Shown piece after piece: positions 1,495-25,035 of a stretch of DNA of 64,000 bases. Under the pieces are notes generated by a model. It saw only the letters and a list, made by a program, of their open reading frames with translations, had not been told where the DNA came from and searched no databases. Numbering within the stretch: the stretch's first letter is position 1; every line of letters begins with the position of its first letter. The translations under genes were made by a program, and so were the position numbers. Origin of the DNA: Candidatus Cloacimonadales bacterium (lineage in GTDB: Bacteria; Cloacimonadota; Cloacimonadia; Cloacimonadales; JAFGVF01); NCBI GenBank assembly GCA_963678315.1, contig OY782781.1:1120001-1184000 (forward strand). Reading direction: 5' to 3'.

Positions 1495-2016
1495 TTAGTT
1501 GTTCCTAATGTAGTTAATAACATAATCAAGATGTTTTTCATTTCGTATAAACCTATCATAATAGTCTCTCATCCATACTTTACCTTTCCTATTTAATAGC
1601 TTATTGATTTTTGTTGAAGAATAGGATTTCCAAGTGTGAACAATGTTTGGAAGACTTACATTCTCATAAAGGCGGATAAGAACATGTACATGATTAGGCA
1701 TGATTTTATATTCAATTAGATCGTATTTTATATTTGCATAATATTTTAGAATAGTTTCCATTAGTTTTTGTATTTTATCTTGTTTTAACCAACAACAACC
1801 ATAACCTCTATCTTCAAAAGTAGCAATCTTGTTGTATAATATGCTTTTCTTCCAATTATCATCTTTATCTTTACCTAAGAATTCTATTTCTTCTTTCCAA
1901 ACAAAAATTATATCTTTAGGTACTGAATCGAATAGTCTAAATGTGATAAATTGACATAGACAATCTAAATCACAATGAGGTAAATAATTGTTATTATACC
2001 AACCCTTTGTTTCCAT
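1495..2016 (-). mobile_element. REP-associated tyrosine (Y1/HUH) transposase, RAYT-1
   Basis: Motifs YLPH, FITFRLFDS, MPNHVHVL (HUH), WKSYS, W.RDYYDRFIRN..HL..V.NYI (catalytic Tyr); REP clusters on both sides. Confidence 0.9.
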
Positions 2017-5219: not shown

Positions 5220-5258
5220 TGTCATAATTGATAATTGATAAGGCTGGCTGTGTGTCAG

Positions 5259-5683
5259 CCTTCTAGAAAAGTAAAATTACAGGTGATAGGAAGGCGAGCG
5301 CCTGGCTCGCATCATATCTTGCAAACTCGATGTTTGTGAGATATGAAGATATATTTACAAAAATATGTTAAAGAGTAATTTTATCCTTCCAGAAAAGCAA
5401 AATTACAGGTGATAGGAACGCGAGCGCCTGGCTCGCATCATATCTTGCAAACTCGATGTTTGTGAGATATGAAAATATATTTACAAAAATTTGTTAAAGA
5501 ATGAATAAAAAACTTCTGCATCTAGCAGAAGCTTTTTATAGCGCACCAGGCGTACGCGATCCATCCTTCTAGAAAAGTAAAATTACAGGTGATAGGAACG
5601 CGAGCGCCTGGCTCGCATCATATCTTGCAAACTCGATGTTTGTGAGATATGAAGATATATTTACAAAAATATGTTAAAGAGTA
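5259..5683. repeat. Family B direct-repeat/REP array upstream of RAYT-2
   Basis: Three ~120-nt units starting ~5259, 5385 and 5565 with core GGAA(C/G)GCGAGC-GCCTG-GCTCGC and hairpin TCTTGCAAAC-TCGAT-GTTTGTGAGA. Confidence 0.9.
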
Positions 5684-5717: not shown

Positions 5718-6245
5718 ATGGATGAATCCAATAAGGGGTGGACTTCTAGAGGGTATCTACCACACTATGATATGTACGATACAATACAATTTATTACATT
5801 TAGACTATATGATTCTCTTCCTTATCAACTAATTGCAAGTTGGAAAGAGATAATAAACTCAAATAATTATAAAGGTCTTAGCAGGCAAGAAATTCGTAAA
5901 AAGAAAATTCTAGTTGAAAAGTATGCTAGAAATGGCTATGGACAGTGCTTTCTAAGACATGAAAAGTGTGCTAATATCGTGAAAAGCCATATTCTTTTAG
6001 GTAATAAAAAAGATTATGAATTATTCGAATATGTCATCATGCCAAACCATGTTCACGTTTTAATCAGAACTCTTGATACAAGCAATTTATCAAATATTGT
6101 AAGAAGGTGGAAATCTAGAACAGCTCATGAAATAAATTATGTATTAAAGCGTAAAGGAAGTGTTTGGATGCATGGTTATTATGATACTTATATCCGTAAT
6201 AATGAACATTTAAACCATGTTGTTGAATATATTAGAAATAATTAG
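5718..6245 (+). mobile_element. REP-associated tyrosine (Y1/HUH) transposase, RAYT-2
   Basis: SRGYLPH, FITFRLYDSLP, MPNHVHVL, WKSRTA, W.HGYYDTYIRN..HL..VVEYI; clear paralog of 1495-2016. Confidence 0.9.
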
Positions 6246-6263
6246 AATTAGAAATTTAATGTT

Positions 6264-6566
6264 TGAATAAAAAGCTTCTGCATCTAACAGAAGCTTTTTA
6301 TAGCGCACCAGGCGTACGCGATCCATCCTTCCAGAAAAGTAAAATTACTGGTGATAGGAAGGCGAGCGCCTGGCTCGCATCATATCTTGCAAACTCGATG
6401 TTTGAGAGTTGTAGGATAGTTCTTTGCAATCTAATATTAAAGAGTAGTTTTTATCCTTCCAGAAAAGTAAAATAACTGGTGATAGGAACGCGAGCGCCTG
6501 GCTCGCATCATATCTTGCAAACTCGATGTTTGAGAGTTGTAGGATAGTTCTTTGCAATCTAATATT
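6264..6566. repeat. Family B direct-repeat/REP array downstream of RAYT-2
   Basis: Two units starting ~6327 and ~6455; 6264-6407 repeats 5502-5646 almost exactly. Confidence 0.9.
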
Positions 6567-6651
6567 GTTATTTTGCATTTGAAAAAGGGCTAATTGTAAT
6601 TTGTAAATATTAACGAAAAACAAATAAATTGTAAAAAAGATAAAAAACTCA

Positions 6652-6681
6652 TTGACAAAGAAAAATAAATACTACTATAAT
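6652..6681 (+). promoter_or_regulatory. Sigma70-type promoter for giant surface protein 1
   Basis: TTGACA (6652-6657), 18-nt spacer, TATAAT (6676-6681). Confidence 0.6.
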
Positions 6682-6707
6682 AGCACTAGAATAATAAGAG
6701 AAAAAGT

Positions 6708-7015
6708 ATCCTTGTTATGAAGTGTAGTTAGCTATAAGAGAAATTAGACACACCACACTACATACAAAAAGGCTGATAACAACGATTAACAGGATATGAA
6801 TGCTGATTGATTGAATGAATTTAGTGAGTTCCTTATGGATTACATCACCACAGTAATTCTAAGATGACAAAAGAGCTAATAACAATGATTTCAATCAAGA
6901 TGTTGAAAAATATTAACACTATAGTAGAGAGAGAAAATGGAAGACTAAATATAGTGTTCGATTACTTCACCACGGTAATCGTTCACTCTGTTTTTACAAT
7001 TCATTCTATACTATA
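6708..7015 (+). ncRNA. Candidate structured 5' leader: three long hairpins carrying CACCAC at the apex
   Basis: CACCAC at 6751, 6846 and 6968; GGATTAC-ATCACCACA-GTAATTC and CGATTAC-TTCACCACG-GTAATCG; outer stems TATCCTTGTTA/TAACAGGATA, TTGATTGAA/TTCAATCAA, TATAGTA/TACTATA. Confidence 0.5.
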
Positions 7016-7061
7016 TTTAAAAAACTTATATAACATTTAAGCATGTTATGGGAGAATTTAA

Positions 7062-10000
7062 ATGAAGAAAAATTATTTAATGGTTATTTTACTACTATTA
7101 TGTGTAGGCTTTATGTATGCAGACCAATTAGAATTAACAGGCTCTGCATATGGTGCGGATAGTAATCCCACTGAAGTAACAATTGATATTACTGGCCTTC
7201 CTGCTGGTGCCACAATTACTGATTTATTAGTTACTACAGTCTGGGGAAACTCAACATATATTGGTTCTTGGTATGATGTACATTTAGAAATAAACGAAAC
7301 TTCTTATCCTAGTGTTGGTTTATTAACCGACCAATCTTACTCTGATATAAATGGTACTGTTTTAACAGGCCATAGCGTTAGAGCTTATACTGAAGATCTT
7401 GATGATTATGCAGATTCAAGTACTTTATATTTAACTGTAAAAGTTGAATATACACCTGCAGCTGGAACACCTGAAGCTCCAATTTTAACATTACCTGCTG
7501 ATGGTGCTCTTAACCAAGAAATTACAGGTTCTCTTGAATGGACAATTGGTGCAGATACAGATACAGCAACTTTATATATTGCAGATAATGCTGATTTCAC
7601 AGATGCTGATATGTATGCTGCAGCTACATCTCCATATGCCTATAGTGGTCTTGACTTAAATACAATGTATTACTGGAAAGTTGTAGCTATAAACAATGGT
7701 TCTGGAATCGAATCTCAATCATCAGTTTATTCATTTGCAACAGAATATGGCACTGCAACAGTACCTTATACTGAAAACTTTGATTCTTATGATGATGGCG
7801 ATTTACCTGATGGATGGAGTATTTTTAATAATTCAGGTTCTGCTTATACTTATACTGAAGTTGAGACTGGATATAGCGTATCAGGTTCAAATTCTTTTAG
7901 AATGTATAATTCTTCTTATACATCTTCTGATATCATTGCTTCTACACCAAGAATGCAAACAAATGGTAACAGAGTAAAATTCAGTGCTAAGGGATCATCT
8001 GATGGTACTATTCTTTATGTTGGCACAATGACAGATCCTTTAGATAATACTACATTTACAAGATTAGATTCTATTAGTTTAACAACTACACATACAATTT
8101 ATACTGTAAATCTATCAGATGTAGATGCAGTTGATTATGTATCATTTAAACATGGTCATGGTTCAACTTACAGCTATATATATCTTGATGATGTTTTAGT
8201 TGAAGAAGCTCCTCAAGGAACTCAAATTACTATATCACCTGAAGAAGCAGATTGTGGACATTATTTGCAAGGTGCTACAATAGCTGATTCTGTAATGGTA
8301 ACAGTTTCAAACACTGGTGGAACAACTGCTACTATAACAGAAATTTCAGTAGCTGACTTAAATAATTTTGCAGTTTCTTATACCTTTGCTGTGCCTTATG
8401 AACTTGAGGCTGGATCTAGTTTTGACGTATACGTTAAAACTAAATCAGATTACGTTGGAACACATGAATCAAACTTAGTTATCAAAGAACAAGATCCTGC
8501 TAATCCAATTGTTCCGATAATTCATAATGCAACTATTTTAAGTCAAATTTTAGACTCAACAGGTAATGATCATAATGATCCGTTTGTGCTTACTATAGCT
8601 GATTCAATCTTTGCTGAAGGTAATTCATCTGCTTATGATGATAATTATGATTTTGATTCTTCAGCGTCTGTTGTTTATAAACTTACTTTAGCTCAAGATA
8701 AATTAATGATCATCTCTTTTGAAGGTTCTAGTTTTGATACTAAAATGTGGGTTTTCAATTCATTCGATCAAATTGATACTGCAACACAAAATTCTGATGC
8801 ATGGTACTACAATGATGATGAATCAGGTTCAGGTACTGGCGGAAGATTTGTTGAAGGTCCAAAAACCAGAGATAGAGCAACTTGGTCAAGAATGGACCAA
8901 ACTTTAGCTGGCGCAGGTGATTATTACATAGTTCTTGCTGGTTATGGTACTGCATCAGGTGATTATCAACTTCATGTAATGTTAGAAGATATTCCAGCTC
9001 CTATGCAAGCTACTAACCCTAGCCCAGAAGACGATGCTATTGACCAAGCTACTAGCCTTACTCTTGAATGGACTAATGCACAATGGACATCTATGAATGA
9101 TATCTATTTTGGTACTGTTGGTAATATGACACTACTTGACGAAAATATTGACGTAACTGAAGAGTACTTAGTTGAAAACTTAAGTCCAACTACTGAATAT
9201 GAATGGAAAGTTGTTTGTAAAAACCTTAATGGTCAAACTCCTGCTGATTCAGTAGCAACTTGGTCATTCACTACAGTTGGTCAAGCTCCTGAAGCTGCTC
9301 AATACTTATCTCCTGATAGTTTAGGAACTGATGTTTCTTTATCTGGATCTTTGACTTGGGAAGCAGCAACTGGTGCTGATGGATATTATGTATATCTTTC
9401 AACTGATGAATTCTTCTCAGGTGTAACTCCTGAAGATGTAAACACAAACTCTTATGCATACACTAATTTAGACTATGATACCAGATACTTCTGGAAAGTT
9501 GTTCCATACAATGTTGTTGGTTCTCCTACAGAAGGAATTGAAGTATGGCAATTCGAGACTATGGCATCTCCTTTCCCTGAAGCTGATATAGTTTTTGATG
9601 GTGAAAGATCAACCGGTCAAAGTATGCCTATAGAACCATATTTTGGTTATACAATGACTCAAAATATCTATGCTCAAGAAGAAATTAATGTATCTGATTC
9701 AGCTATTAACTCTATTAGCTATCTCTACAACAATAATTCTGCTTGGTCAGAAACAATAGAAATTTATGCAAAACACACAACAAAAGATACTTTTGCTGAT
9801 ACTTATGATTGGGACCTAAATGGCTTCACTCAAGTTTACAGTGGAACTATGACAGTTGATACAACTAACCCTATCGTTACAATCGACTTTGATACACCAT
9901 TTATCTATAATAATACAGATAATCTATTAATTATGTTCTTTGCTACTGAATCTGGATATAATTCAGGCTCAGATGAATTCTATAACTATTCTGTAGAAGG

Positions 10001-12998
10001 AAATAGATCTCTTAATATATATAGTGATGGTACAAACTATTCTACTACTTTCCCTACAACTGTTCCTGCTGGGACACTTAAATCATATATTCCAGTTACT
10101 GGTTTTAATATTCAAGAAGTTTCAGCAGAATCTGAATTTACAGCTTCAGCAGATACATTAACATTTGAAGATCAAGTAATGGGAACTGTAAGTGATTCTC
10201 AAACACTTACAATAAGTAATATTGGTCTTGGTGACTTAGTAATCTCTAGTGTTGAACTTGTTGGTTCTAATGCTGTTGAATACGATTTCACAGACTTAAA
10301 TACTTATCCTGATACATTATCAACATCAGAAGTATTAAACTTTGCTGTTGTATATAGTCCTGAAACTGAAGGTGATCACCTTGCTACTATCGAAATTACT
10401 GATTCAGAAGCAACTGTTTATACTGTTGAGATAGTTGGTAATTCAGTAGATACAAATATCTATGCTGAAGATTTACCTTTCTCAAATAGTGGAGAAGATG
10501 ATAATTCATTCTTAGGTTGGTACTCATCAGTTCAATCAACTAGTGAATATGCAGCAATATCTATAAATGGTACAGAAACTAATGCTCATACTGGAACTAA
10601 CTCAGTTAGGTTCTACAACTCTGGTGATACTGCAGCAGAAATGATGCTTACTTCTCCAGTAATTGTTCCTGACTTTACTGGTCATAGAGCTAAATTCTGG
10701 ATTAAAGGTGATACAGCTGGTCAATTAATATTTGCTCTTTATGATGCTGATATGCAAATATTAACAGCTATTGATACTGTTGATGTTCCTCTTACTTATA
10801 CTCAATTCATCTATGAATTTGATACTAGTATGGATAACAAACGCTTAGTATTCAAACCAATCTTTGGTGGAACATATGATAATGTATATCTTGATGATGT
10901 AGAATTCGAAGTTACTCCACAAGTACCAGTAGCTGATATTTCAGTAACTGAATTAGCTTTTGGTGAAATTGAAGTTGGTGAAACATCAGGTGCTCAAACA
11001 ATTACTGTTTCTAATGTTGGTATTGGTGAAATGATTGTTTCAAATATTGAAATTACTGGTACTGATGCTGCTCTATTCGCATTTGACAATGTAGTTCTAC
11101 CTGACACTCTTATGGATAATGAAATGTTAGATATTAATGTAACATTCTCTCCAGATGCAGTAGGACCAAAAACAGCAACTCTTGTTATTTCAGATAATCT
11201 TAACAGAGCTTCTTACAATGTTACTTTAACTGGTGACGGTTGGGTTCCTCCTACTGGTTCTACATGTGTAGATCCTTTAGCATTAACTCTTCCAGCTGTT
11301 GATGTAACTGGTACAACTGAAGGCTTTGTTGATGACTATAGTTCTGCTGGTTTAGATATGTATTCTTCATATCTTGATGGTGATGATATTGTATATCAAT
11401 TTACATTAGAACAAGGTGCTTTACTTAATGGTACTGCAACTACAAGTGATGTAGCATTGGGCCTTTTCATAGTACAAGATGAACCAAACACAACAACTCC
11501 AGTTGAAGTTTTTGTATATGAAAATGCAGGATATAATGGAACATCTGTTACATTAACAGATGAATACCTTGCTGCTGGTGATTACTATCTAATCATCTCT
11601 TCATACGGTTACTATGCACAATCAATAGATTTCACACTTAACTTAACAGCAGATGCAATACCTGCTCCTGAAGCTGCTACTAACCCAACACCTGCTGATG
11701 AAGCAATTGATCAACCAACTGCTCTTACATTAGAATGGACCAATGCAGAATATACTGAAACAGTAGACTTATACTTCGGAACATCTCGTGGAAGAAGCAT
11801 GTCATTAGTTCTTGATAATGTGGCTGCTGTTGAAGAATATGCAGTAACTGATTTAACTCCAAATACTGAATATTCATGGAAAGTTGTTAATCGTAACTAC
11901 ACTGGTGAAACTGTTGATACACTTGTAACAACATGGACATTTACTACTATTGGATCTGCTCCTGAAGCAGTTACCTATACTTCTCCAACAGACGAATCTA
12001 CAGATAAAGAACTTAATGGTACTTTATCCTGGCAAGCTGCTACTGGTGCAAATGGATACAATGTATATCTTGATACAGATTCAACATTTACATCTGTAAC
12101 TCCTATAGACCAAACAGCAACTTCATACGACTATAGTGGCCTAGACTATTCAACTACTTACTACTGGAAAGTTGTTCCTTATAACGTAGTAGGTACACCT
12201 ACTGAAGGTGTTGAAATTTGGTCATTTACTACTATGGAAGATCCAACTATAGCTATGCCTGTTACTATAGATTTCGAAGGTTCTACTACTAATCCAGTTG
12301 AAATTACTGAAGAGAACTTTGGTATAACTAATGGACATAACACTATAACTAATGCTATGTATAAAAACATTTATAGCTCAAGCACTAATGGTTATATCCA
12401 ATTCCAAGCAATGAATGGTATTACCTCTTCTTCTGTAATTGAATTTGATTATAGAGTTACATTGTGGTCAGCTGGTACTACTGGCGTTACTTTTGAAGAT
12501 GATCACGATTATATTGTTGTAAATGCTTCTACTGATGCTGGTGCAACATTTACTCCAATAGCTTCAATAAACAATACTAACCATACTAATACAGCAGACT
12601 TTACAAGATTATCTGTTGATATCAGTGCTTATGAAGGTCAATCTGTTGTCTTCAGACTTGAAATGTTTGATGACACTGTAAATGATATGTGGTTTGACTT
12701 TGATAACTTCTACTTCGGTGAACCGGTTATTACTCAACCAGATGCTCCTGTTGATTTTGCAATTGTTGAAATTGCAACTGGTCTTGAGTTAACATGGACT
12801 GCTGTTGAAGGTGCTACAACTTATAAAGTTTATGGTTGTGCTACTCCAGACGGTGAATATACAATGATGACTGAAGGTCAAGTTGTAGAAGCTTCTTATG
12901 TTTACACAGAAGATGCTCCAATGATGTTCTTCAAGGTTTATGCATCTCCAGATGCTATGCCTTTAGGTAAGACAATTAGAAGAGCTAGAAGAAACTAA
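7062..12998 (+). CDS. Giant acidic modular secreted/surface protein (Fn3-like, cleaved-adhesin/MAM-like and choice-of-anchor D/ASH-like Ig repeats)
   Basis: 1978 aa; signal peptide; repeated YYWKVV.N...WSFTT, PYTENF...YLDDV and T(I/V)SN.G...L.I motifs; SD GGGAG. Confidence 0.88.
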   Translation: MKKNYLMVILLLLCVGFMYADQLELTGSAYGADSNPTEVTIDITGLPAGATITDLLVTTVWGNSTYIGSWYDVHLEINETSYPSVGLLTDQSYSDINGTVLTGHSVRAYTEDLDDYADSSTLYLTVKVEYTPAAGTPEAPILTLPADGALNQEITGSLEWTIGADTDTATLYIADNADFTDADMYAAATSPYAYSGLDLNTMYYWKVVAINNGSGIESQSSVYSFATEYGTATVPYTENFDSYDDGDLPDGWSIFNNSGSAYTYTEVETGYSVSGSNSFRMYNSSYTSSDIIASTPRMQTNGNRVKFSAKGSSDGTILYVGTMTDPLDNTTFTRLDSISLTTTHTIYTVNLSDVDAVDYVSFKHGHGSTYSYIYLDDVLVEEAPQGTQITISPEEADCGHYLQGATIADSVMVTVSNTGGTTATITEISVADLNNFAVSYTFAVPYELEAGSSFDVYVKTKSDYVGTHESNLVIKEQDPANPIVPIIHNATILSQILDSTGNDHNDPFVLTIADSIFAEGNSSAYDDNYDFDSSASVVYKLTLAQDKLMIISFEGSSFDTKMWVFNSFDQIDTATQNSDAWYYNDDESGSGTGGRFVEGPKTRDRATWSRMDQTLAGAGDYYIVLAGYGTASGDYQLHVMLEDIPAPMQATNPSPEDDAIDQATSLTLEWTNAQWTSMNDIYFGTVGNMTLLDENIDVTEEYLVENLSPTTEYEWKVVCKNLNGQTPADSVATWSFTTVGQAPEAAQYLSPDSLGTDVSLSGSLTWEAATGADGYYVYLSTDEFFSGVTPEDVNTNSYAYTNLDYDTRYFWKVVPYNVVGSPTEGIEVWQFETMASPFPEADIVFDGERSTGQSMPIEPYFGYTMTQNIYAQEEINVSDSAINSISYLYNNNSAWSETIEIYAKHTTKDTFADTYDWDLNGFTQVYSGTMTVDTTNPIVTIDFDTPFIYNNTDNLLIMFFATESGYNSGSDEFYNYSVEGNRSLNIYSDGTNYSTTFPTTVPAGTLKSYIPVTGFNIQEVSAESEFTASADTLTFEDQVMGTVSDSQTLTISNIGLGDLVISSVELVGSNAVEYDFTDLNTYPDTLSTSEVLNFAVVYSPETEGDHLATIEITDSEATVYTVEIVGNSVDTNIYAEDLPFSNSGEDDNSFLGWYSSVQSTSEYAAISINGTETNAHTGTNSVRFYNSGDTAAEMMLTSPVIVPDFTGHRAKFWIKGDTAGQLIFALYDADMQILTAIDTVDVPLTYTQFIYEFDTSMDNKRLVFKPIFGGTYDNVYLDDVEFEVTPQVPVADISVTELAFGEIEVGETSGAQTITVSNVGIGEMIVSNIEITGTDAALFAFDNVVLPDTLMDNEMLDINVTFSPDAVGPKTATLVISDNLNRASYNVTLTGDGWVPPTGSTCVDPLALTLPAVDVTGTTEGFVDDYSSAGLDMYSSYLDGDDIVYQFTLEQGALLNGTATTSDVALGLFIVQDEPNTTTPVEVFVYENAGYNGTSVTLTDEYLAAGDYYLIISSYGYYAQSIDFTLNLTADAIPAPEAATNPTPADEAIDQPTALTLEWTNAEYTETVDLYFGTSRGRSMSLVLDNVAAVEEYAVTDLTPNTEYSWKVVNRNYTGETVDTLVTTWTFTTIGSAPEAVTYTSPTDESTDKELNGTLSWQAATGANGYNVYLDTDSTFTSVTPIDQTATSYDYSGLDYSTTYYWKVVPYNVVGTPTEGVEIWSFTTMEDPTIAMPVTIDFEGSTTNPVEITEENFGITNGHNTITNAMYKNIYSSSTNGYIQFQAMNGITSSSVIEFDYRVTLWSAGTTGVTFEDDHDYIVVNASTDAGATFTPIASINNTNHTNTADFTRLSVDISAYEGQSVVFRLEMFDDTVNDMWFDFDNFYFGEPVITQPDAPVDFAIVEIATGLELTWTAVEGATTYKVYGCATPDGEYTMMTEGQVVEASYVYTEDAPMMFFKVYASPDAMPLGKTIRRARRN

Positions 12999-13054: not shown

Positions 13055-13231
13055 TATTATAGCCACAGATAACACAGAAAAACACGGATAAGAAAAGAAC
13101 TATACAAAGATCTTAATTATCCACTAATTACACTAATATCACAAATTAGAAAAGAAAACCTCCCAACTCTCCTTCTCAACTCTCAACCCCTCAACATCAC
13201 AATTTTCAACAAGTGCAATAAAAAAAATAAT

Positions 13232-13261
13232 TTGACATGATTTAGCTATTGTAACTAATTT
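13232..13261 (+). promoter_or_regulatory. Possible sigma70 promoter for giant surface protein 2
   Basis: TTGACA at 13232-13237; weak -10 TAATTT at 13256-13261. Confidence 0.4.
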
Positions 13262-13276
13262 AACGCTGTTAAGGTA

Positions 13277-13376
13277 GGAAACTTAACTAGTATAACGTAT
13301 AACAAAGACTTTGAAGTATAGTAAAATGCCACACCACATACCATTACATCTTTGTTAAAAACAATAGTAAGTTTCC
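13277..13376 (+). ncRNA. Candidate structured 5' leader hairpin with CACCAC apex (fourth copy)
   Basis: GGAAACTTA/TAAGTTTCC and TAACAAAGA/TCTTTGTTA stems enclosing TGAAGTATAGT...CACACCACA, matching TGAAGTGTAGT...CACACCACA in leader 1. Confidence 0.5.
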
Positions 13377-13439
13377 ATTAGAATTGTTTTATTTACAAAA
13401 TAAAACCGCACATTTAATTATTATGGGAGAAATGTTTTT

Positions 13440-16400
13440 ATGAAAAAACACCTTTTTTTACTTATATTTGTTATTTTTTCAATAACTAGTATATTCTCAT
13501 TAACCTACACCTTAAGTTTAGCTGATAGCTACGGTGATGGTTGGAATGGTGGATCTATTGATGTCCTCGTTAATGATGTTGTCGTTATTGACGACGCGAC
13601 AATCTCTTCAGGTAACTCATATACAGAGACTTTTGAAGTTAATGGTCTGGATGTAATTACTACTGCATACACTGCTGGTAGTTGGGGTAGTGAAAACTCA
13701 TATCAAATTTTAAACGAAACAGGAACAGTTGTAGCCGAATCAGGACAATCTGGAATTCCTAGTGATGTTGAATACACTGTACCTGAAGTTATTGCTGGTA
13801 CACCTGATGTACCAACAGTTCTTGGTCCTTCTAACAACTCACAAAACCTAGCACTTGATACAACTATTGAGTGGACAACTGGTGAAAATACAGAGTTAGT
13901 AAAATTATACTTCTCTGAAAATGCTGATTTAACAGATGCGATTATTGTTAATCCAGCAACAACTCCTTATGTACCAACATTAGAAAACAATGTTACCTAT
14001 TACTGGAAACTTGTTGCTGTTGGTCCTACAAATATTGAAGTTGAAACACAAATTTATAACTTTACAACAGAATATGGAATGGTTGAGCTTCCTTATAGTG
14101 AAAACTTTGACGATATTTCATTTAATGAAACTCCAGCTGGCTGGTCTTTTATAAATACTTCTACATCTACATATGCTTGGATCAATGTTAAAGATATAGC
14201 TCCTTTTAATGGAAGTAATCATGTAAGAATGTATAATTCATATTACACAGATGTTGAGCTAGCTGCAGTAACTCCAAAAGTTGTTTTTGACGGTAATAGA
14301 GTTAGATTCCAAGCTCAAGCTGATGATACAGATGTTTCTGTTGTTGTCGGATATATGACTGATCCGTCAAACTTAGAAACATTTACAGAAATTACAACAT
14401 TCAATTTAACCGCTGAATATGCTTCATATAATGTAGCTTTACCTAGCAATGTAACTGATGGATATCTTGCTTTCAGACATGGTATGACTGCTAATTATCA
14501 AACTCTTGATATAGATGATGTTAATATTGAAGAAATTCCTTCTACTCCAATAGCACAAATAGCAACTGATGACTTAGATTTTGGATCTTCAGTTCTTAAT
14601 GAAACTTCAGAAGCTCAGGATGTAACTCTTACTAATATTGGTGGTGGAACACTTAATGTTTCTTCTGTAACAATTACAGGTACAAATGCAGACCAATTCT
14701 TAGTTTCAGACAATAGTGATTATGCACTAGAAGCTAATGAATCAATGGTTGCAAGTGTTAGCTATAATCCAACTCTAGCTGGTCAGCATACTGCTACTCT
14801 TGAAATTACAGATGATTTAGATACTTACCAAATAGCTTTAACAGGCCAAGGTGTTGATACAAATATCTATGAAATCAATATTCCTTATACACAAGATTTT
14901 GAAACTGAAGAGGGTTTCTTAGGTTGGACATCTAATATTAACTCTACAAGTGATTATGCTTCAGCAGAAAGATATAGTTCATCTTATTCTGCTAATAATG
15001 GAACTTATTCATTTAAATTCTATAATTCAAGTGATACAGATGCTGTATGTGACCTAGTTTCACCAGTAATAGTACCAGACATGGATGCTTATAGAGTGAA
15101 ATTCTTTGCTAAAGGTGATGGCTCAATTGTTGTAGGTAAATTAAATACTAGTGATGAATTTACCTTTGTTGATTCATTAGATTTAAACTCTACATACACT
15201 GAATATACCGTTAATATGGAAGTAAGCAGAGCTAATGAAAGATTAGTTTTCAGAACAACTTTTGATAGTTCATCAGATTATGTGTATCTTGATGATGTAT
15301 TATTCGAAGAAGCTCCAGAAGGTTCTTTAGTGACTATCAGCCCAGATTCACATGATTTTGAAAGTAAAATGATTAATAGTGAATCTGCTCCTATAACATT
15401 TACTATTTCTAATGATGGAGTTATTGCTTCAGAAATAACAGAAATTTCAATAAATGGTGAAGGATTTGTGCTTTCACATGAAATTGAAAGTTTTTCTTAT
15501 CTATTAGAACCAAACACATCTATTGATGTTCAAGTTGCGTTTGCTCCAGAAGCTATCATGAATTATAATGCTCAGCTTGTTGTAAAAGAAGCTACTTCAA
15601 ATCCGTTTGTTCCTAATGTATATACATCTGATTTAACTGGTCAAGGTCTTGATAATCAAGGTAACGACCATACAAATCCATTTGTTATGTCACTTGCTGA
15701 TACTATTGTTGTAACAGGCAATACAGAAGACTTTGAAAATACCTACAGCTGGGCTACATCTCCATCTGTTGTTTACTCAATTACTTTAGAAGAAACTCAA
15801 TTAATGAGTGTTTCTTTAGAAGGTACTTCTTGGGATACAAAACTTTGGATATTTAACTCTACAGAGCAAATAGAATCAGCTACAGTTGGTGCAGATGCTT
15901 GGTACTTCAATGATGATGAAGGTTCTGCTTCAACAGGTGGTAGAAAAGATAGAACAAGAGCTACTTGGTCTAAAATGAATGATACATTCACACCTGCTGG
16001 AACATATTATATTGTTGTTACAGGTTATAATTCAAATTCAGGTGAATATACTTGTACAGTTGTTACAAGTGAAGTCCCAGCACCTCAATATACTACTAAT
16101 CCAACACCTGCAGATTCATTAACAGGTGTTCCAACAGCTCAACTCCTTAGCTGGTCTAACCCTGAATATACAGAAACTATTGATTTATGGTTTGGTACTG
16201 AAGGTAACATGAACTTAGTTCTTGATAATGTTGATGCTGTTGAAGAATATCAACCTACAGAATTAACTTCTAATACAACTTACCAATGGAAAGTTATTGC
16301 ACGCAACTTTAATGGCCAAACACCTGCTGACTCAGTAGCAACCTGGTCATTTACTACAATCGGTCAAGCTCCAGACCCTGTAGCTTACACTTCACCTGCA

Positions 16401-19016
16401 GATGCTTCAGTAGATACTGATTTAACTGTTACATTAAATTGGAACAGCTCAGCTTCTGCTGATGAATACAAAGTTTACTTTGCTACAAGTGAAGATTTAT
16501 CTGCTGTTACTCCTGTTGTTCAAACAGAAACTTCTTATGAAGTTAGTGACTTAGACTACGCAACTACTTATTATTGGATGGTTGTTCCTTCTAATATTAT
16601 TGGTGATGCTGAAGGTGCTGAAACATGGTCTTTCACTACTATGGAATCTCCATTCCCAGCAGCTGACCTTGTTTTTGATGGTGAAAGATCTACTAATCAG
16701 AATATGCCAATAGAACCATTTTATGGTTATACATTAACACAAAATATCTACTTACAGTCAGAACTAAATATTGAAAATCATGCTATCTCAGAGATTTCTT
16801 ATTTATACAACAATAATAGTGCTTGGACTGATAATGTAATTATTTATATGGGTCATACTTCAAAAACTGAATTTGAAAGTACTACTGACTGGATAAATAC
16901 TGATTTAACTGAAGTGTTTAATGGTGATTTTACTACAACTACTGATAATCCAGTTGTTAACATTTCTTTAAGTACACCATTTGTCTATAATAACAGCGAT
17001 AATTTAATCGTTTGTGTATTTGAAAACTCTTCAGGTTATCATGCAAGCAATGATGAATTCTATAACTTCTCAGTATCTAGTAATAGATCACTAAACTACA
17101 AGAACGATTCAACTAATCCTTATACATTAGGTTTTGATGCTTTACCAACTGGTACTTTAAAACCTTATCTTCCTGTTACTGGTTTCAACTTCCAAGAAGT
17201 CTCTGCAGAGCCTCAATTTACAGCAAGTTCTGATACTTTATTCTTTGTTGACCAAATTATGAATACTGTAAGTGGTATCCAGAACCTAGTAATTAGTAAC
17301 TTAGGGCTTGGTGATTTAACTATTAACTCAGTAGCATTAGCTGGTGCAAATGCTGTAGAGTTTGATTTAACAGATGAAAATGCGTATCCTGCAACATTAG
17401 CTACTTCAGAAATATTGACAGTTTCTCTTGTTTATAGTCCAGAAACTGCTGGTGACCACCTTGCAACAATAGAAATTGTCGATGGTGATAATACAAGTCA
17501 TATAGTTGAATTAGTTGGTAATTCAATAGATACAAATATCTATGAAACTGATTTACCTTATTCTAATGGTTTTGAAGAAGAGACTAGTCTTCTAGGTTGG
17601 ACTTCTGTTGTTGAATCAACTTCAGATTATGCATCACTAGAACTTACAACTTCATCTTCTTATATCCATTCTGGTTCAAAAGCTATGAAACTATATAACT
17701 CTGGTGATATTGATGCTAACTTATCTCTTACATCTCCAATAATTGTTCCTGATTTTGATGGTTATAGATTAAAATTCTGGGCTAGAAGTAATTCAACTAG
17801 TAGATTAGTTATATCTACTATTGATCAAGCTATGGAAAATACAACATTAATAGATACTATTGATGTTACTTCTACATATACTGAATTCTTATATGATTTC
17901 CCTATAGTTAGAGCTAACACTAGATTAGTATTTACTCCAGTATTTACATCTACTTATAATAGTGTTTATCTTGATGATATCAGTTTTACAGCTACACCAT
18001 TAGTAGCTATCGCAGAAGTAAGTGAAAATCAACTTGCTTTTGGTGATGTTCCTGTTGAAGATACTTCATCATCTCAAACTGTTACTATTACTAATATTGG
18101 TGCAAGTATTCTTAATGTTAACAATATTGAAATTATTGGTGATGATGCAGAAATGTTCTCATTCTCTACAGAAGAAGAAGCTTCAACTGCTCTTGCTAGT
18201 CAAGAAAACTTAGAAATATCAGTTACTTTTATTCCTTCATCAGAAGGTGAAAAGACTGCAACATTAGTTATAACTGATGATTTAACTAGAACAGCTCATA
18301 ATGTTACTCTTACAGGTAATGGTTGGGTTATTCCTGCTGGTACAGATTGTTCTGATCCTTTAGCTTTAACACTTCCTGCTGTTGATGTTACTGGTAATAC
18401 AGGTGACTATGGTGATGATTATAGTTCAGCTATGGTTTCTCCTTCATCAAGTTACCTTAATGGTGACGATGTTGTTTACCAATTCACAGTTAATACAGAT
18501 GTAACTCTTGATGGTACAATTACAACCACTGGTTCTTGGATGGGTGCATTTATTCTTGCAGACGAACCAAATGCAACTACACCGGCTGCTGTTGAAATTC
18601 AAAAAACTACATCAGGAACTAGCTTAACATACTCAGCAGAAGCTTTACCGGCTGGTACTTATTTCTTGATCATATCAACTTACCCAACTCCTCAAGCAAT
18701 TGATTATACTATCAACTTAACTGCTACTCCAGTAGTAACCCAACCAGATACTCCTGTAGATTTCGTAATCGAAAGCTCAGAAGCTGGTATGGTTCTAACA
18801 TGGAATGAAGTTGAAGGTGCTACAACTTATAAAGTTTATGGATATGAAAGCCCTAGTGCTATTCCAGTTGACTTAACAAATGAAACACCTATAGCACAAG
18901 TTGAAACTGAAACTTACACATACACAGAAGATGCTCCTATGATGTTCTTCAAAGTTATTGCATCTACAGATGAAATGACTTCTGCAAAAACAATTAGAAG
19001 AGCTAGAAGAAACTAA
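13440..19016 (+). CDS. Giant acidic modular secreted/surface protein, paralog of 7062-12998
   Basis: 1858 aa; signal peptide; DSYGDGWNG N-terminal module; same module set; shared blocks such as NGQTPADSVATWSFTT and TIRRARRN. Confidence 0.88.
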   Translation: MKKHLFLLIFVIFSITSIFSLTYTLSLADSYGDGWNGGSIDVLVNDVVVIDDATISSGNSYTETFEVNGLDVITTAYTAGSWGSENSYQILNETGTVVAESGQSGIPSDVEYTVPEVIAGTPDVPTVLGPSNNSQNLALDTTIEWTTGENTELVKLYFSENADLTDAIIVNPATTPYVPTLENNVTYYWKLVAVGPTNIEVETQIYNFTTEYGMVELPYSENFDDISFNETPAGWSFINTSTSTYAWINVKDIAPFNGSNHVRMYNSYYTDVELAAVTPKVVFDGNRVRFQAQADDTDVSVVVGYMTDPSNLETFTEITTFNLTAEYASYNVALPSNVTDGYLAFRHGMTANYQTLDIDDVNIEEIPSTPIAQIATDDLDFGSSVLNETSEAQDVTLTNIGGGTLNVSSVTITGTNADQFLVSDNSDYALEANESMVASVSYNPTLAGQHTATLEITDDLDTYQIALTGQGVDTNIYEINIPYTQDFETEEGFLGWTSNINSTSDYASAERYSSSYSANNGTYSFKFYNSSDTDAVCDLVSPVIVPDMDAYRVKFFAKGDGSIVVGKLNTSDEFTFVDSLDLNSTYTEYTVNMEVSRANERLVFRTTFDSSSDYVYLDDVLFEEAPEGSLVTISPDSHDFESKMINSESAPITFTISNDGVIASEITEISINGEGFVLSHEIESFSYLLEPNTSIDVQVAFAPEAIMNYNAQLVVKEATSNPFVPNVYTSDLTGQGLDNQGNDHTNPFVMSLADTIVVTGNTEDFENTYSWATSPSVVYSITLEETQLMSVSLEGTSWDTKLWIFNSTEQIESATVGADAWYFNDDEGSASTGGRKDRTRATWSKMNDTFTPAGTYYIVVTGYNSNSGEYTCTVVTSEVPAPQYTTNPTPADSLTGVPTAQLLSWSNPEYTETIDLWFGTEGNMNLVLDNVDAVEEYQPTELTSNTTYQWKVIARNFNGQTPADSVATWSFTTIGQAPDPVAYTSPADASVDTDLTVTLNWNSSASADEYKVYFATSEDLSAVTPVVQTETSYEVSDLDYATTYYWMVVPSNIIGDAEGAETWSFTTMESPFPAADLVFDGERSTNQNMPIEPFYGYTLTQNIYLQSELNIENHAISEISYLYNNNSAWTDNVIIYMGHTSKTEFESTTDWINTDLTEVFNGDFTTTTDNPVVNISLSTPFVYNNSDNLIVCVFENSSGYHASNDEFYNFSVSSNRSLNYKNDSTNPYTLGFDALPTGTLKPYLPVTGFNFQEVSAEPQFTASSDTLFFVDQIMNTVSGIQNLVISNLGLGDLTINSVALAGANAVEFDLTDENAYPATLATSEILTVSLVYSPETAGDHLATIEIVDGDNTSHIVELVGNSIDTNIYETDLPYSNGFEEETSLLGWTSVVESTSDYASLELTTSSSYIHSGSKAMKLYNSGDIDANLSLTSPIIVPDFDGYRLKFWARSNSTSRLVISTIDQAMENTTLIDTIDVTSTYTEFLYDFPIVRANTRLVFTPVFTSTYNSVYLDDISFTATPLVAIAEVSENQLAFGDVPVEDTSSSQTVTITNIGASILNVNNIEIIGDDAEMFSFSTEEEASTALASQENLEISVTFIPSSEGEKTATLVITDDLTRTAHNVTLTGNGWVIPAGTDCSDPLALTLPAVDVTGNTGDYGDDYSSAMVSPSSSYLNGDDVVYQFTVNTDVTLDGTITTTGSWMGAFILADEPNATTPAAVEIQKTTSGTSLTYSAEALPAGTYFLIISTYPTPQAIDYTINLTATPVVTQPDTPVDFVIESSEAGMVLTWNEVEGATTYKVYGYESPSAIPVDLTNETPIAQVETETYTYTEDAPMMFFKVIASTDEMTSAKTIRRARRN

Positions 19017-19609: not shown

Positions 19610-21146
<1,537 letters not shown>

Positions 21147-21234
21147 AAAGGAGAAATGTTTCTCGACGAGTTCACTTTCATTCTTTCATGATTATAGGGA
21201 CTTTTTTAATCTATATAGTTTCTGATTAAAATAT

Positions 21235-21311
<77 letters not shown>

Positions 21312-21316
21312 GTTGT

Positions 21317-21392
21317 GGGGGATTAGCTCAGTTGGGAGAGCACCTGCTTTGCAAGCAGGGGGTCAACGGTTCGAGCCCGTTATTCTCCACCA
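21317..21392 (+). tRNA. tRNA-Ala (TGC)
   Basis: Cloverleaf, anticodon loop TTTGCAA, G3:U70 pair, encoded CCA. Confidence 0.97.
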
Positions 21393-22562
21393 TATTTTTT
21401 TATCAAAGGAAACTAAGATGTTTAAACAGTAAATAGAGTGTAATATAGAGTGTGTAAGATTTTTTTTTGTAAGAGCAAAAGAGCACATGGTGGATGCCTT
21501 GGCACCAAATGGCGATGAAGGACGTGGTTAACTGCGAAAATCTTCGGTGAGCTGTAAGCAAGCTTCGACCCGGAGGTATCCGAATGGGGCAACCCGGCAC
21601 AAGTAATGTTGTGTCATCCGGTTTACCGGAGGCGAACGAGGGGAACTGAAACATCTAAGTACCCTCAGGAAGAGAAAGTAAAAACGATTTCCTAAGTAGC
21701 GGCGAGCGAACGGGGAAGAGCCTAAACCAGTTGAATAACTGGGGTTGTGGGACTACAATGTAGAGAAGTAATTGATAGACGAATTGATCTGGGAAGTTCA
21801 ACCAGAGAAGGTGAAAGTCCTGTAGTTAAAATTGATTACCATCTTAGTAGCATCCCGAGTAGGTCGGAACACGAGAAATTCCGATTGAATCTGCGAGGAC
21901 CATCTCGTAAGGCTAAATACGTTTGGTGACCGATAGTGAAACAGTACCGTGAGGGAAAGGTGAAAAGGACCCCAGAAGGGGAGTGAAATAGAACCTGAAA
22001 CCGTGTGTTTACAAGCAGTCAGAGCTTAATAGCGATGGCGTGCCTTTTGCATAATGAGCCAACGAGTTAATCTATTCAGCGAGGTTAAGTTTTACAGAAA
22101 TGTAGCCGAAGCGAAAGCGAGTGTTAATAGCGCGTTAAGTTGATTGGATTAGACCCGAAACCGGGTGATCTACCCATGACCAGGTTGAAGGCAAGGTAAC
22201 ACTTGCTGAAGGACCGCACCAACTAATGTTAAAAAATTAGTGGATGAGTTGTGGGTAGGGGTGAAAGGCCAAACAAACCCGGAGATAGCTGGTTCTCTTC
22301 GAAACATATTTAGGTATGGCCTCAGGCAAAAGTTTATAGGAGGTAGAGCACTGAATGGGCTAGGGGACTCACCAGTTTACTGAACCCAATCAAACTCCGA
22401 ATGCCTATAAATGATACCTGGGAGACAGCCCGTGGGGGATAAGCTTCACGGACGAAAGGGAAAGAACCCAGACCACCGGCTAAGGTCCCCAATTTTATGC
22501 TAAGTGAGAAAGGATGTTTAATTGCATAGACAGCCAGGATGTTGGCTTAGAAGCAGCCACCA

Positions 22563-22596
<34 letters not shown>

Positions 22597-22645
22597 GTAA
22601 TGCACCGAAGATGATCGGGACTAAAGCATAGAACCGAAGCCGTGG

Positions 22646-22961
22646 CCCAGCACTTATTTATATTTTTTTTAGGAGTTCGTATGTACTATGTTTATGTGTT
22701 AATAAGTAGAAGTAAAGAGAAATTGTATATAGGATATACATCAAATTTACAACAGCGAGTTAAACAACATAATAGTAAACATAAAGGATATACTAATAAC
22801 GACATATGGGATTTAGTATATTATGAAGCATACTACTCAGAGAAAGATGCAAGACAACGTGAGCAAAAACTCAAACAACATGGAAACAGTAAGAGATTTT
22901 TGAAAGAACGTATAAGTAATAGTATTGAAACAATCTAAAAAAAATACAAATAAGTGCTGGG
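22646..22961 (+). mobile_element. 23S rRNA intervening sequence (IVS) at helix 45
   Basis: 27-nt inverted repeat CCCAGCACTTATTTATATTTTTTTTAG / CTAAAAAAAATACAAATAAGTGCTGGG (one mismatch) between the conserved CCGAAGCCGTGG and GGTAGAAGAGC. Confidence 0.9.
22681..22938 (+). CDS. Stand-alone GIY-YIG nuclease (85 aa) inside the 23S IVS
   Basis: SD AGGAG at 22671-22675, ATG at 22681; YYVYVL..S.....YIGYTSNL..R...HN...YYEAY....AR.RE..LK. Confidence 0.9.
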   Translation: MYYVYVLISRSKEKLYIGYTSNLQQRVKQHNSKHKGYTNNDIWDLVYYEAYYSEKDARQREQKLKQHGNSKRFLKERISNSIETI

Positions 22962-23669
22962 GGTAGAAGAGCATTCTGAACAGCGACGAAGATTAACTGT
23001 GAGGTTAGTTGGAGCGTTCGGAAGAGACGATGTTGGCATGAGTAACGATAATGTGAGTGAGAAACTCACACACCGCAAGTCCAAGGTTTCCTCAGTAAAG
23101 ATAATCTTCTGAGGGTAAGCCGGCCCCTAAGGCGATGCCGAACGGCGCAGCTGATGGGAACCAGGTTAATATTCCTGGGCCTGTTATAATGAGTGATGGA
23201 GTGACGCAGTAATGCTGCACAGACTACTGTTGGATTAGTAGTTGAATGTATGTAGGAGACTTTATAGGCAAATCCGTAGAGTCAATCCGAGGTACAGGAC
23301 GATAGCATAGCTAATAAAGTGTGTTTATAGGACTGCCGAGAAATAGCTTCTAAACGTTGAATTATAACAGACCGTACCCTAAACCGACACAGGTGGACGA
23401 GGAGAGTATCCTCAGGTGTTCGAGAGAATTCTGGTTAAGGAACTAGGCAAAATGACCCCGTAACTTCGGGAGAAGGGGTGCCACGTTAGTGTTAGTATGT
23501 ACAATACAAAGCATGAAGTGGCCGCAGTGAAGAGGCCCAAGCGACTGTTTATCAAAAACACAGGTCTGTGCGAAGAAGTAATTCGAAGTATACAGACTGA
23601 CACCTGCCCGGTGCTGGAAGGTTAAATGGAGAGGTTAGCTTAATTGCGAAGCTTTGAAATGAAGCCCCA

Positions 23670-23757
<88 letters not shown>

Positions 23758-23824
23758 GGGCACTGTCTCAACCAGGAACTCGGTGAAATTGTAATAGCGG
23801 TGAAGATACCGCTTACCCGCGAAC

Positions 23825-23855
<31 letters not shown>

Positions 23856-24194
23856 TCTTGGCATTGTACATTGGTTTAGTATGTGTAGGATAGGTGGGAG
23901 GCTATGACTCATGGTCGCTAGATTGTGATGAGCCGTTGTTGAAATACCACCCTTATTAAATTGATTTACTAACGATATGAAAACATATCGGACATTGCCA
24001 GGTGGGCGGTTTGACTGGGGCGGTCGCCTCCTAAAAAGTAACGGAGGCTTACCAAGGTTCCCTCAAGATGGTTGGTAATCATCTGCAGAGCATAAAGGTA
24101 TAAGGGAGCTTGACTGCGAGACTGACGGGTCGAGCAGGTAGGAAACTAGGTCTTAGTGATCCGGCGGTTCTGAATGGAAGGGCCGTTGCTCAAA

Positions 24195-24227
<33 letters not shown>

Positions 24228-24283
24228 ACCGCCCAAGAGTTCATATCGACGGCGGTGTTTGGCACCTCGATGTCGGCTCAACT

Positions 24284-24334
<51 letters not shown>

Positions 24335-24337
24335 AGT

Positions 24338-24384
<47 letters not shown>

Positions 24385-24502
24385 TTCGTGGGCGTAGGAG
24401 ATTTGAGAGGATCTTCATTTAGTACGAGAGGACCGGTGTGGACGAACCTCTGGTGTATCGGTTGTGGCGCCAGCTGCATTGCCGAGTAGCTAAGTTCGGA
24501 AC

Positions 24503-24535
<33 letters not shown>

Positions 24536-24695
24536 AACCTCAAGATTAGATCTCCCCTTAGAGTCATTGGAGACTACAATGTATATAGGTCACAGGTGTA
24601 CGCATAGCAATATGTTCAGCCGAGTGATACTAATAACTCGATCGTCTTACTTATTAAATTTTATACACTCTATAGCTTTATTTATTATGAATAAG

Positions 24696-24718
24696 GATTG
24701 TAAGCATCTTGCTTACGA
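24696..24718 (+). repeat. Single family A REP hairpin in the 23S-5S spacer
   Basis: GGATTGTAAGCATCTTGCTTACG. Confidence 0.7.
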
Positions 24719-24780
24719 ACTTACATATTAATAAATGAAGTAAAAAACACTAATATAAATCATTTTTGGCAAGGGTCAAA

Positions 24781-24896
<116 letters not shown>

Positions 24897-25035
24897 TTTG
24901 ACCCTTGCTTTTTTACGTAAGTAAAAACAAGGCAAAGAGCATAAATCATGTAATCTACTTCATGAGCTTTAGCTCATAAATAATATTAAGCTCTTTGACC
25001 CTTGCTTTTTTTACGTATATAAAATTGGTACATCT

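Follow-up and report, generated by a model that had tools for sequence, protein, structure and literature searches.

RNAIII of Staphylococcus aureus acts on rot and spa messenger RNAs (mRNAs) as well as on coa mRNA, and one of the loops that it uses sits on its terminator hairpin. In OxyS-fhlA, ColE1 RNA I/RNA II and CopA/CopT, 7-9 complementary nucleotides (nt) lie in the apical loops of both partners. Qrr, CrcZ and NrsZ are sigma-54-dependent small RNAs (sRNAs), and the rpoS leader is bound by DsrA, RprA and ArcZ, sRNAs that pair along a linear stretch and depend on Hfq. On coa mRNA, RNAIII forms a duplex that masks the Shine-Dalgarno sequence (SD) and makes a distant loop-loop contact (PMC2837412). 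Here we describe a structured 5' leader RNA in front of a giant secreted-protein gene of a Candidatus Cloacimonadales bacterium, together with two candidate RNA partners encoded elsewhere in its genome: an sRNA-like gene, Y, and the 5' end of an mRNA, X. The leader lies in the window, by which we mean the whole analysed stretch of 64,000 nt (positions 1,120,001 to 1,184,000 of contig OY782781.1, assembly GCA_963678315.1), and coordinates given without a prefix are those of the window; the prefix G000:C1 marks those of the whole contig. The structures, conservation, complementarity and shared distribution reported below were computed directly.

RNAIII acting on coa mRNA is probably the closest known parallel. 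The likeness lies in a C-rich loop that masks the SD, a separate loop-loop contact, and targets (coa, rot, spa) that are surface or secreted proteins. Y has no sequence or Rfam relationship to RNAIII, however, and UCCC pairs with GGGA there, whereas here GUGUGGUGG would pair with CCACCACAC and the promoter is of the sigma-54 type. Moreover, up to three identical loops stand in the ~375-nt 5' leader and not in the coding region. The 7-9-nt recognition between apical hairpin loops is shared with OxyS-fhlA and the plasmid antisense systems, but they use one or two loop pairs, whereas the same loop occurs three times here. ColE1 and CopA/CopT are also cis-encoded on the opposite strand, whereas the candidate partner Y lies 830 kb away. 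Like Qrr, CrcZ and NrsZ, Y is found behind a -24/-12 promoter (TGGAAC-N5-TTGCA) in a genome with rpoN; it differs in coming from another phylum, in having no Rfam family and in that its sigma-54 dependence is read from the promoter form. The rpoS leader is similar in being a long 5' leader in which the ribosome-binding site is paired to an element further upstream, but the candidate contact sites here are hairpin loops.

The leader family, Y, the X element, the threefold kissing loop in one leader and the possible mRNA partner are new, while the kind of mechanism is already known. None of the papers listed in full-text searches of the open-access literature was relevant to regulatory RNAs in Cloacimonadota. 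As far as we found in Rfam and that literature, these would be the first regulatory RNAs for this uncultured phylum, and they make up a candidate RNA pair or trio for the control of these organisms' most conspicuous surface proteins. The RNAs are short, and each proposed contact is specified nucleotide by nucleotide, which opens the idea to checks in vitro and in a heterologous host without culture.

A structured leader upstream of gene A

Gene A (7062..12998, plus strand) encodes a secreted repeat protein of 1978 amino acids (aa) with a signal peptide and with immunoglobulin-like, FN3 and choice-of-anchor D domains. The leader region extends from a sigma-70-type promoter (6652-6681) to the start codon at 7062. 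The promoter matches the consensus at 12/12 positions (TTGACA 6652-6657, an 18-nt spacer, TATAAT 6676-6681, plus strand), and its position would place the transcription start near 6688, giving a leader RNA of ~375 nt (6688..7061, plus strand). This leader contains CACCAC three times, at 6751-6756, 6846-6851 and 6968-6973, which we refer to as units 1, 2 and 3. A first-pass annotation of this DNA had listed the hexamers, two tight stem-loops and the promoter, and all of them read exactly as it claimed.

The predicted fold consists of four hairpins, all on the plus strand. In brief, hairpin 1 (6706..6797) is long and irregular according to folding and alignment; unit 1 does not form a tight stem-loop, and its CACCAC sits inside a large apical region that holds CACACCACACUACAUAC (6749-6765). 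Hairpin 2 (6807..6898) is closed by UUGAUUGAA (6807-6815) pairing with UUCAAUCAA (6890-6898). Its apical stem (6837-6843/6853-6859), which has one G.U pair, carries the 9-nt loop AUCACCACA at 6844-6852, and the stem-loop as a whole reads GGATTAC[ATCACCACA]GTAATTC (6837-6859). In the hairpin 3 domain (6918..7016) the apical stem (6959-6965/6975-6981) carries the 9-nt loop UUCACCACG at 6966-6974, and the stem-loop reads CGATTAC[TTCACCACG]GTAATCG (6959-6981). The stems of hairpins 2 and 3 are near-identical. The last element is a predicted hairpin that occludes the ribosome-binding site (7016..7054), in which AUAACA (7030-7035) pairs with UGUUAU (7044-7049) and UUUA (7016-7019) pairs with UGGG, next to the SD GGGAG at 7050-7054. 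Folding of 6685-7075 gave -75 kcal/mol, compared with -60.8 +/- 4.4 kcal/mol for shuffled sequences (z -3.19; 1/100 shuffles folds as well). A blastn search found no second copy of the leader in the window genome. The only short open reading frame (ORF) of the leader, MKCS, is not conserved, and we rejected a leader peptide.

A BLAST search of 41 related genomes gave no leader homologue, although six of these genomes had one; covariance models were needed because of this. We located the orthologous genes through their proteins and compared the DNA upstream of them. The six sister-genus leaders obtained in this way (~400 nt) all keep the promoter (TTGACA and TATAAA), CACCAC in units 1 and 3, the hairpin beside the SD and, ahead of the start codon, AUAACA...UGUUAUGGGAGAA. 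In unit 2, 5/6 have CACCAC and the remaining one has CGCCAC. The motif is thus conserved in orthologous leaders. In the sister genus there is no conservation of the 22-mer that units 1 and 2 have in common in the window genome (6766-6787 and 6869-6890, 18/22 bases identical), nor of a U5 that follows hairpin 3 in the window genome.

Two covariance models were built, R1 from hairpin 3 to the start codon and R2 from hairpin 1. The R1 family matches 8/151 genomes of the order, namely 1/1 of the window genome's own genus and 7/7 of the sister genus, with no match in the third genus of the family (0/4) or in other families (0/139). There is one copy in the window genome, one in each of six sister-genus species and five in the seventh species (genome G011). 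R2 recovers exactly the same 12 copies at E <= 1.4e-8, the next best match having E 0.11. The unpaired unit 1 stretch ACCAC(A/G)CU(A/G)CUAUA is invariant in all 12 leaders, while the mean column identity of its surroundings is 71%. The spacing from unit 2 to unit 3 varies from 122 to 135 bp.

The alignment of the 12 leaders was folded with RNAalifold, which predicted, besides apical stems in units 2 and 3, an extended form of hairpin 3, the AUAACA:UGUUAU hairpin beside the SD, and a long-range helix, GUAACA:UGUUAC, that encloses hairpin 3. In this alignment 92.3% of the cells are paired, and both sides are changed in 14 pairs, compared with 4.9 +/- 1.6 in shuffled alignments (0/500 reach 14) and 3-7 for slid partners. 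Hairpin 3 by itself has six such pairs, and a base pair that is C-G in the window genome is U-A in the sister genus. From a reading of the alignment, the long form of hairpin 1 (GGCUAU with GUAGCC) is preferred over a local CUACU:AGUAG stem, because two paralogues swap C-G to U-A in it, and the local stem is broken in these same two. In all 12 leaders the minimum-energy fold has the first Gs of the SD in pairs. Their partner is CCCA in the sister genus and in a close relative, and UUUA, with three G.U pairs, in the window genome; one paralogue changes both sides, having CCUCC together with the SD GAGGAG. We consider it very probable that the region is a structured leader, new, conserved and acting in cis, which covers its own ribosome-binding site in part. 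The annotation had proposed a new cis-regulatory RNA and had foreseen an empty Rfam scan, and both are borne out by the conserved orthologous leaders, the compensatory changes and the lack of any Rfam match to the leader.

At gathering thresholds, Rfam 15 (4227 models) gave only ribosomal RNA (rRNA) and transfer RNA (tRNA) matches in the window. When E values up to 10 were admitted for 6200-7200, the best match was RefA1 (E 0.16; 19 bits, where the threshold is 94), which lies upstream of the leader, and the best match inside the leader was mir-34 (E 1.8). The X and Y loci had no Rfam match below E 0.19. A T-box leader was rejected: its model gave no match at E up to 10, there is no terminator, and the downstream gene encodes a surface repeat protein. 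Binding by CsrA/RsmA was rejected since the apical loops AUCACCACA and UUCACCACG contain no GGA. An attenuator or riboswitch with an intrinsic terminator was rejected because there are 0 terminator-like sites in 6200-7200.

Control of transcription elongation would work either by Rho-dependent attenuation at C-rich, G-poor loops or by processive antitermination, the latter being among the functions that the annotation had suggested. Antitermination is unsupported because the leader holds no terminator. For Rho, the C:G ratio is at most 1 over most of the leader and reaches 2.1-3.2 only in its last ~100 nt (6945-7040), which are predicted to be structured. The genome does encode Rho and a second NusG paralogue, and the genes concerned are long (5.6-5.9 kb); but the NusG paralogue is 870 kb distant, and the likeness to boxA is slight, without conservation in the sister genus. 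We find control of elongation very unlikely. A boxA in the gene A leader was also rejected on the ground that the similar GAUCUUU of sister-genus leaders is predicted to be paired. The second NusG-like gene (202-aa frame, G000:C1:1995152-1995340) lies ~8 kb from two further giant-protein genes at G000:C1:2003736 and G000:C1:2009187.

A contig of a close relative, from another study's sequencing runs, aligns with 6560-7071 with 16-17 differences, none of them inside a CACCAC hexamer, and diverges immediately after the start codon. In the sister genus, the conserved leader and signal peptide are joined to differing mature N-termini. These patterns suggest recombination at the 5' end of surface-protein genes. 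The promoter, leader and signal peptide standing as a unit before different coding sequences suggests surface-protein expression modules that are swapped whole.

Very abundant surface-layer protein mRNAs have been reported with stabilising, expression-boosting 5' untranslated regions, and the leader might mainly be of this kind, with loops that owe their likeness to shared descent or to tertiary contacts; no specific partner acting in trans would then be required. A consensus promoter, an A-rich upstream region, a strong SD, a long and stably folded leader and the reuse of the promoter-leader-signal-peptide unit all suit such a function, and the near-identical stems of hairpins 2 and 3 may be mutual duplicates. 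Against it, the SD is partly paired and not exposed, the 14-nt unpaired stretch is invariant where its surroundings vary, and all three CACCAC are kept across two genera and are untouched by the differences of the close relative. On balance we think a mainly stabilising leader quite unlikely.

The hexamer has 389 sites on the plus strand of the window genome (2.99 Mb, 32.8% G+C). From this rate, by our own arithmetic, ~0.05 copies are expected in 375 nt, and three copies have P ~2e-5. CACCAC occurs at 67 intergenic sites, six of which have a flanking stem of at least 6 bp, units 2 and 3 among them. The annotation had proposed an enrichment before large secreted-protein genes; this does not hold, as only 5 of the 112 ORFs of at least 1000 aa have CACCAC within 500 nt upstream, and more than one copy is found only before gene A. 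The motif UGGGAGAA is found upstream of only six ORFs, four of them of at least 1000 aa, including genes A and B.

Gene B (13440..19016, plus strand) encodes a secreted repeat protein of 1858 aa that is a paralogue of gene A. Its leader (13232..13439, plus strand) has a single CACACCACA (13330-13338), placed apically within a hairpin, which is the fourth motif copy that the annotation had counted, and shares the ribosome-binding site UAUGGGAGAA with the gene A leader. The three sister-genus gene B leaders examined all read UGC[AUCACCAC]GCA. These leaders are shorter than and unrelated to the gene A leader family, and the gene B leader is not detected by models R1 and R2; yet they present CACCAC in apical loops, as, in the sister genus, do the leaders of two further giant genes.

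A pattern of 14 specified bases, run across the order, had three single matches outside the two genera, in coding or unrelated sequence. The unit 3 pattern matched 10 stretches in a genome-collection scan, six of which are sister-genus metagenome-assembled genomes labelled Cloacimonadales or Cloacimonadota; the other four are unrelated single matches, roughly the chance expectation. A metagenome scan with ATTACNTCACCACNGTAAT returned 85 stretches with one match each, and no leader was found among the 80 loci examined, to which an nhmmer leader profile aligned only across the search pattern.

Candidate partners of the CACCAC loops

Among the matches to the unit 1 complement in the family's 12 genomes, two, X and Y, recur at conserved non-coding places. 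Y is an sRNA-like gene of ~135 nt (G000:C1:294537-294675, minus strand), outside the window. It is found once per genome in the same 8/151 genomes as the leader, in 8/8 behind the sigma-54-type promoter TGGAAC-N5-TTGCA. Y has the form of a putative sigma-54-dependent sRNA gene, judging from this promoter, the presence of rpoN in the window genome, and a GC-based terminator hairpin with a U-run after it. Its predicted fold comprises a 5' hairpin, a second one whose loop is UCCCC, a 22-nt linker and the long terminator hairpin (z -3.61; 0/200 shuffles fold equally well). Across the Y alignment 98.4% of the structure cells are paired, and five pairs have two-sided changes, compared with 2.5 +/- 0.9 in shuffled alignments and 0-1 for slid partners; three of the five belong to the stem that bears an invariant 9-nt loop. 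This loop and columns 33-87 (55 nt) are invariant in the 8 genomes, the mean column identity being 91%. The apical loop of the terminator hairpin, GUGUGGUGG, is the complement of CCACCACAC and is invariant in 8/8 genomes.

Sites of the TGGAAC-N5-TTGCA type number 14 in the window genome, compared with three expected, and five are intergenic, Y and four more. The further intergenic sites of the form TGGAAC-N5-TTGC(A/T), upstream of genes at G000:C1:1018957, 1037360, 1346693 and 2839874, suggest a small sigma-54 regulon. One of these four sites precedes a gene for a 1192-aa secreted protein. Y itself stands ~350 nt upstream of a further two genes for giant proteins (1430 aa and 1671 aa), and it could alternatively be the terminated leader of an operon with these genes.

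X is the 5' end of an mRNA that encodes a 215-aa secreted protein (start at G000:C1:1118722, ORF G000:C1:1118026-1118670, minus strand). Its start precedes the window by 1.3 kb; the sister-genus copies are placed 3-7 kb upstream of the leader and share the leader's strand. Directly after a TTGACA promoter with a spacer of 17 comes the 26-nt sequence GUAGUGGUGUGGUGACCAAAACAAAA, which is invariant in 8/8 genomes, and this 5' end carries GUAGUGGUGUGGUGACC. X has an A after GUGGUG, and its best fit is UCACCACA.

By sequence reading, 7-8 pairs are possible between the Y loop and the loops of units 2 and 3, and 10-15 between the Y loop and unit 1, namely 10 in the window genome and up to 15, with one mismatch, in the sister genus. 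The best duplex of the Y loop with the leader (-17.9 kcal/mol) ties for first among 1107 upstream regions. A second region of Y, UUCUCCC, is complementary to GGGAGAA at the ribosome-binding site; the loop proper is UCCCC, with the flanking bases in its stem, and a 7-nt match to an SD is unspecific. Whole-molecule predictions of Y-leader duplexes were unrealistic and were discarded.

Our best explanation, which we see as evenly balanced between right and wrong, is that the YCACCAC(A) loops serve Y, and perhaps X, as kissing-loop docking sites that control translation. The exposed loops, chiefly the invariant unit 1 motif, would dock complementary RNAs encoded elsewhere in the genome. Loop-loop pairing would anchor Y on the leader, and the C-rich loop of Y, or a rearrangement of the leader, would then set the accessibility of the ribosome-binding site. 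With Y anchored and access so set, the output of the giant protein would follow the signal of the sigma-54 activator. We infer that Y and the leader are transcribed as drawn and bind each other, and we favour repression as the direction of the effect. A triple kissing loop in one 5' leader would also permit cooperative or titrating behaviour. More doubtful is a three-RNA hub, in which the leader, abundant and regulated by Y, would in turn titrate Y or pair with the X mRNA. If this were true, a direct contact between mRNAs would couple the synthesis of the giant surface protein to that of its small partner X.

Several observations weigh against kissing-loop docking. The matches to the complement of unit 1 are no more numerous than those to a reversed control. 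The octamer GUGUGGUG has 14 sites in the window genome, of which four are intergenic (the antisense strand of the leader, X, Y and one other); by our own arithmetic ~3 intergenic sites are expected from composition, and three that are not the leader itself are seen. Because the match counts equal chance, the case rests on the positions of the matches and their conservation, and the argument for partners was formed post hoc, after the complementary sites had been seen. An unrelated region shares the first rank of the Y-leader duplex, and the scores lie close together. The shorter pairing of Y with unit 1 in the window genome (10 bp) is uncompensated relative to the sister genus. Neither the Y loop nor the leader motif varies, hence there is no covariation signal in trans. 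The co-occurrence of Y and leader amounts to one or two events, because the 8 genomes are close kin. In the five paralogous leaders of G011 the stems of units 2 and 3 are retained and the loops are not CACCAC, so multivalency is unneeded for the fold. Finally, the 5' untranslated region of the X orthologue in the third genus differs (GUGGGAAUGUGU), and we located no leader loop complementary to it there. The complement of this region had 36 matches, compared with 17 in controls; 16 of the 36 were examined, of which 13 fall in ORFs of at least 100 codons and none is an evident leader loop.

The annotation had read the loops as multivalent sites for an RNA-binding protein. This idea is weakened by the G011 paralogues, which keep only the unit 1 motif. 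As for the reader of the loops, the evidence shifts towards complementary RNAs. A protein that acts on translation or stability would account for the same hexamers standing in 9-nt apical loops upon stems that differ or covary, for the recurrence of the motif in the leaders of gene B and of two further sister-genus giant genes, and for the chance-level number of intergenic complementary octamers; the complementarity of X and Y would then be coincidental, or would mark sites of another factor. Yet we found no candidate protein, none being encoded beside the locus. The only conserved features linked to the motif that we found are complementary RNAs, one site lying in an exposed loop and the other at the 5' end of an mRNA, and loops 2 and 3 are dispensable in the paralogues. 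We regard a protein reader as unlikely.

The site in X lies directly after the -10 element, a classical operator position, and the unit 2 and 3 sites lie within 7-bp inverted repeats that are 9 bp apart. Both arrangements would suit DNA operators, that is, a transcription factor that binds CACCAC(AC)/GTGTGGTG at the start of X and within the leader. We judge this very unlikely, since all leader sites are on the sense strand, the G.U pairs and compensatory changes in the stems matter only in RNA, the spacing of units 2 and 3 varies, and the motif in Y is at the tip of a covarying terminator hairpin. All of the rival explanations are weighted below docking by kissing loops.

Other candidate partners of the leader were rejected. 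rRNA is one of them, as there is no GUGGUG in 16S, 23S or 5S rRNA. The annotation had pointed to a likeness to the anti-SD of 16S rRNA; the loop does share AUCACC with the 16S 3' end GGAUCACCUCCUUU, but we found no use for it. With up to two mismatches, the 17-nt complement of unit 1 of the window genome matched only the leader itself in this genome. The start of a zinc-ribbon gene (G000:C1:1786515; window 666515, beyond its end) is complementary at 20/21 positions, but it is coding, with a blastn E of 0.027, and was treated as chance. An 8-nt match of the Y linker to AGCACAUU of sister-genus leaders is about what chance would give (estimate 0.09) and is absent from the window genome. Two sites in other genomes may be a further partner and a further target, respectively: a second hairpin with a UAUAGUAGUGUGGUA loop in genome G003, and an exact CACCACACUACUAUA in genome G001, ~30 nt ahead of the SD that belongs to an unrelated small gene.

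Genes and repeats around the leader

The C-termini of genes A and B read ...RRARRN (12981-12998) and ...RARRN (18999-19016), and that of the X protein reads ...RRSARARK (...KRA.ARK in the sister genus). These basic ends may be a shared C-terminal sorting or anchoring tail. Genes A and B have no Por_Secre_tail match, whereas the neighbouring C25 peptidases have one.

Two ORFs for IS200-like Y1 transposases (1495-2016, minus strand; 5718-6245, plus strand) are flanked by tandem repeats of 128 nt. Repeats are found at 5256-5683 and 6325-6566, and the last stops ~90 nt short of the leader promoter. At the equivalent site upstream of the promoter, the sister genus has arrays of 29-30-nt tandem repeats. 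An element of ~35 nt, CCACAGATAACACAG... (13058-13092), occurs in many arrays across the genome at a spacing of 171-260 nt, which is not like that of clustered regularly interspaced short palindromic repeats (CRISPR).

A complete rRNA operon (16S, tRNA-Ile, tRNA-Ala, 23S, 5S; 19610-24897) begins 594 nt after gene B, and its leader holds the boxA-like sequence GAUCUUUGAAAGU.

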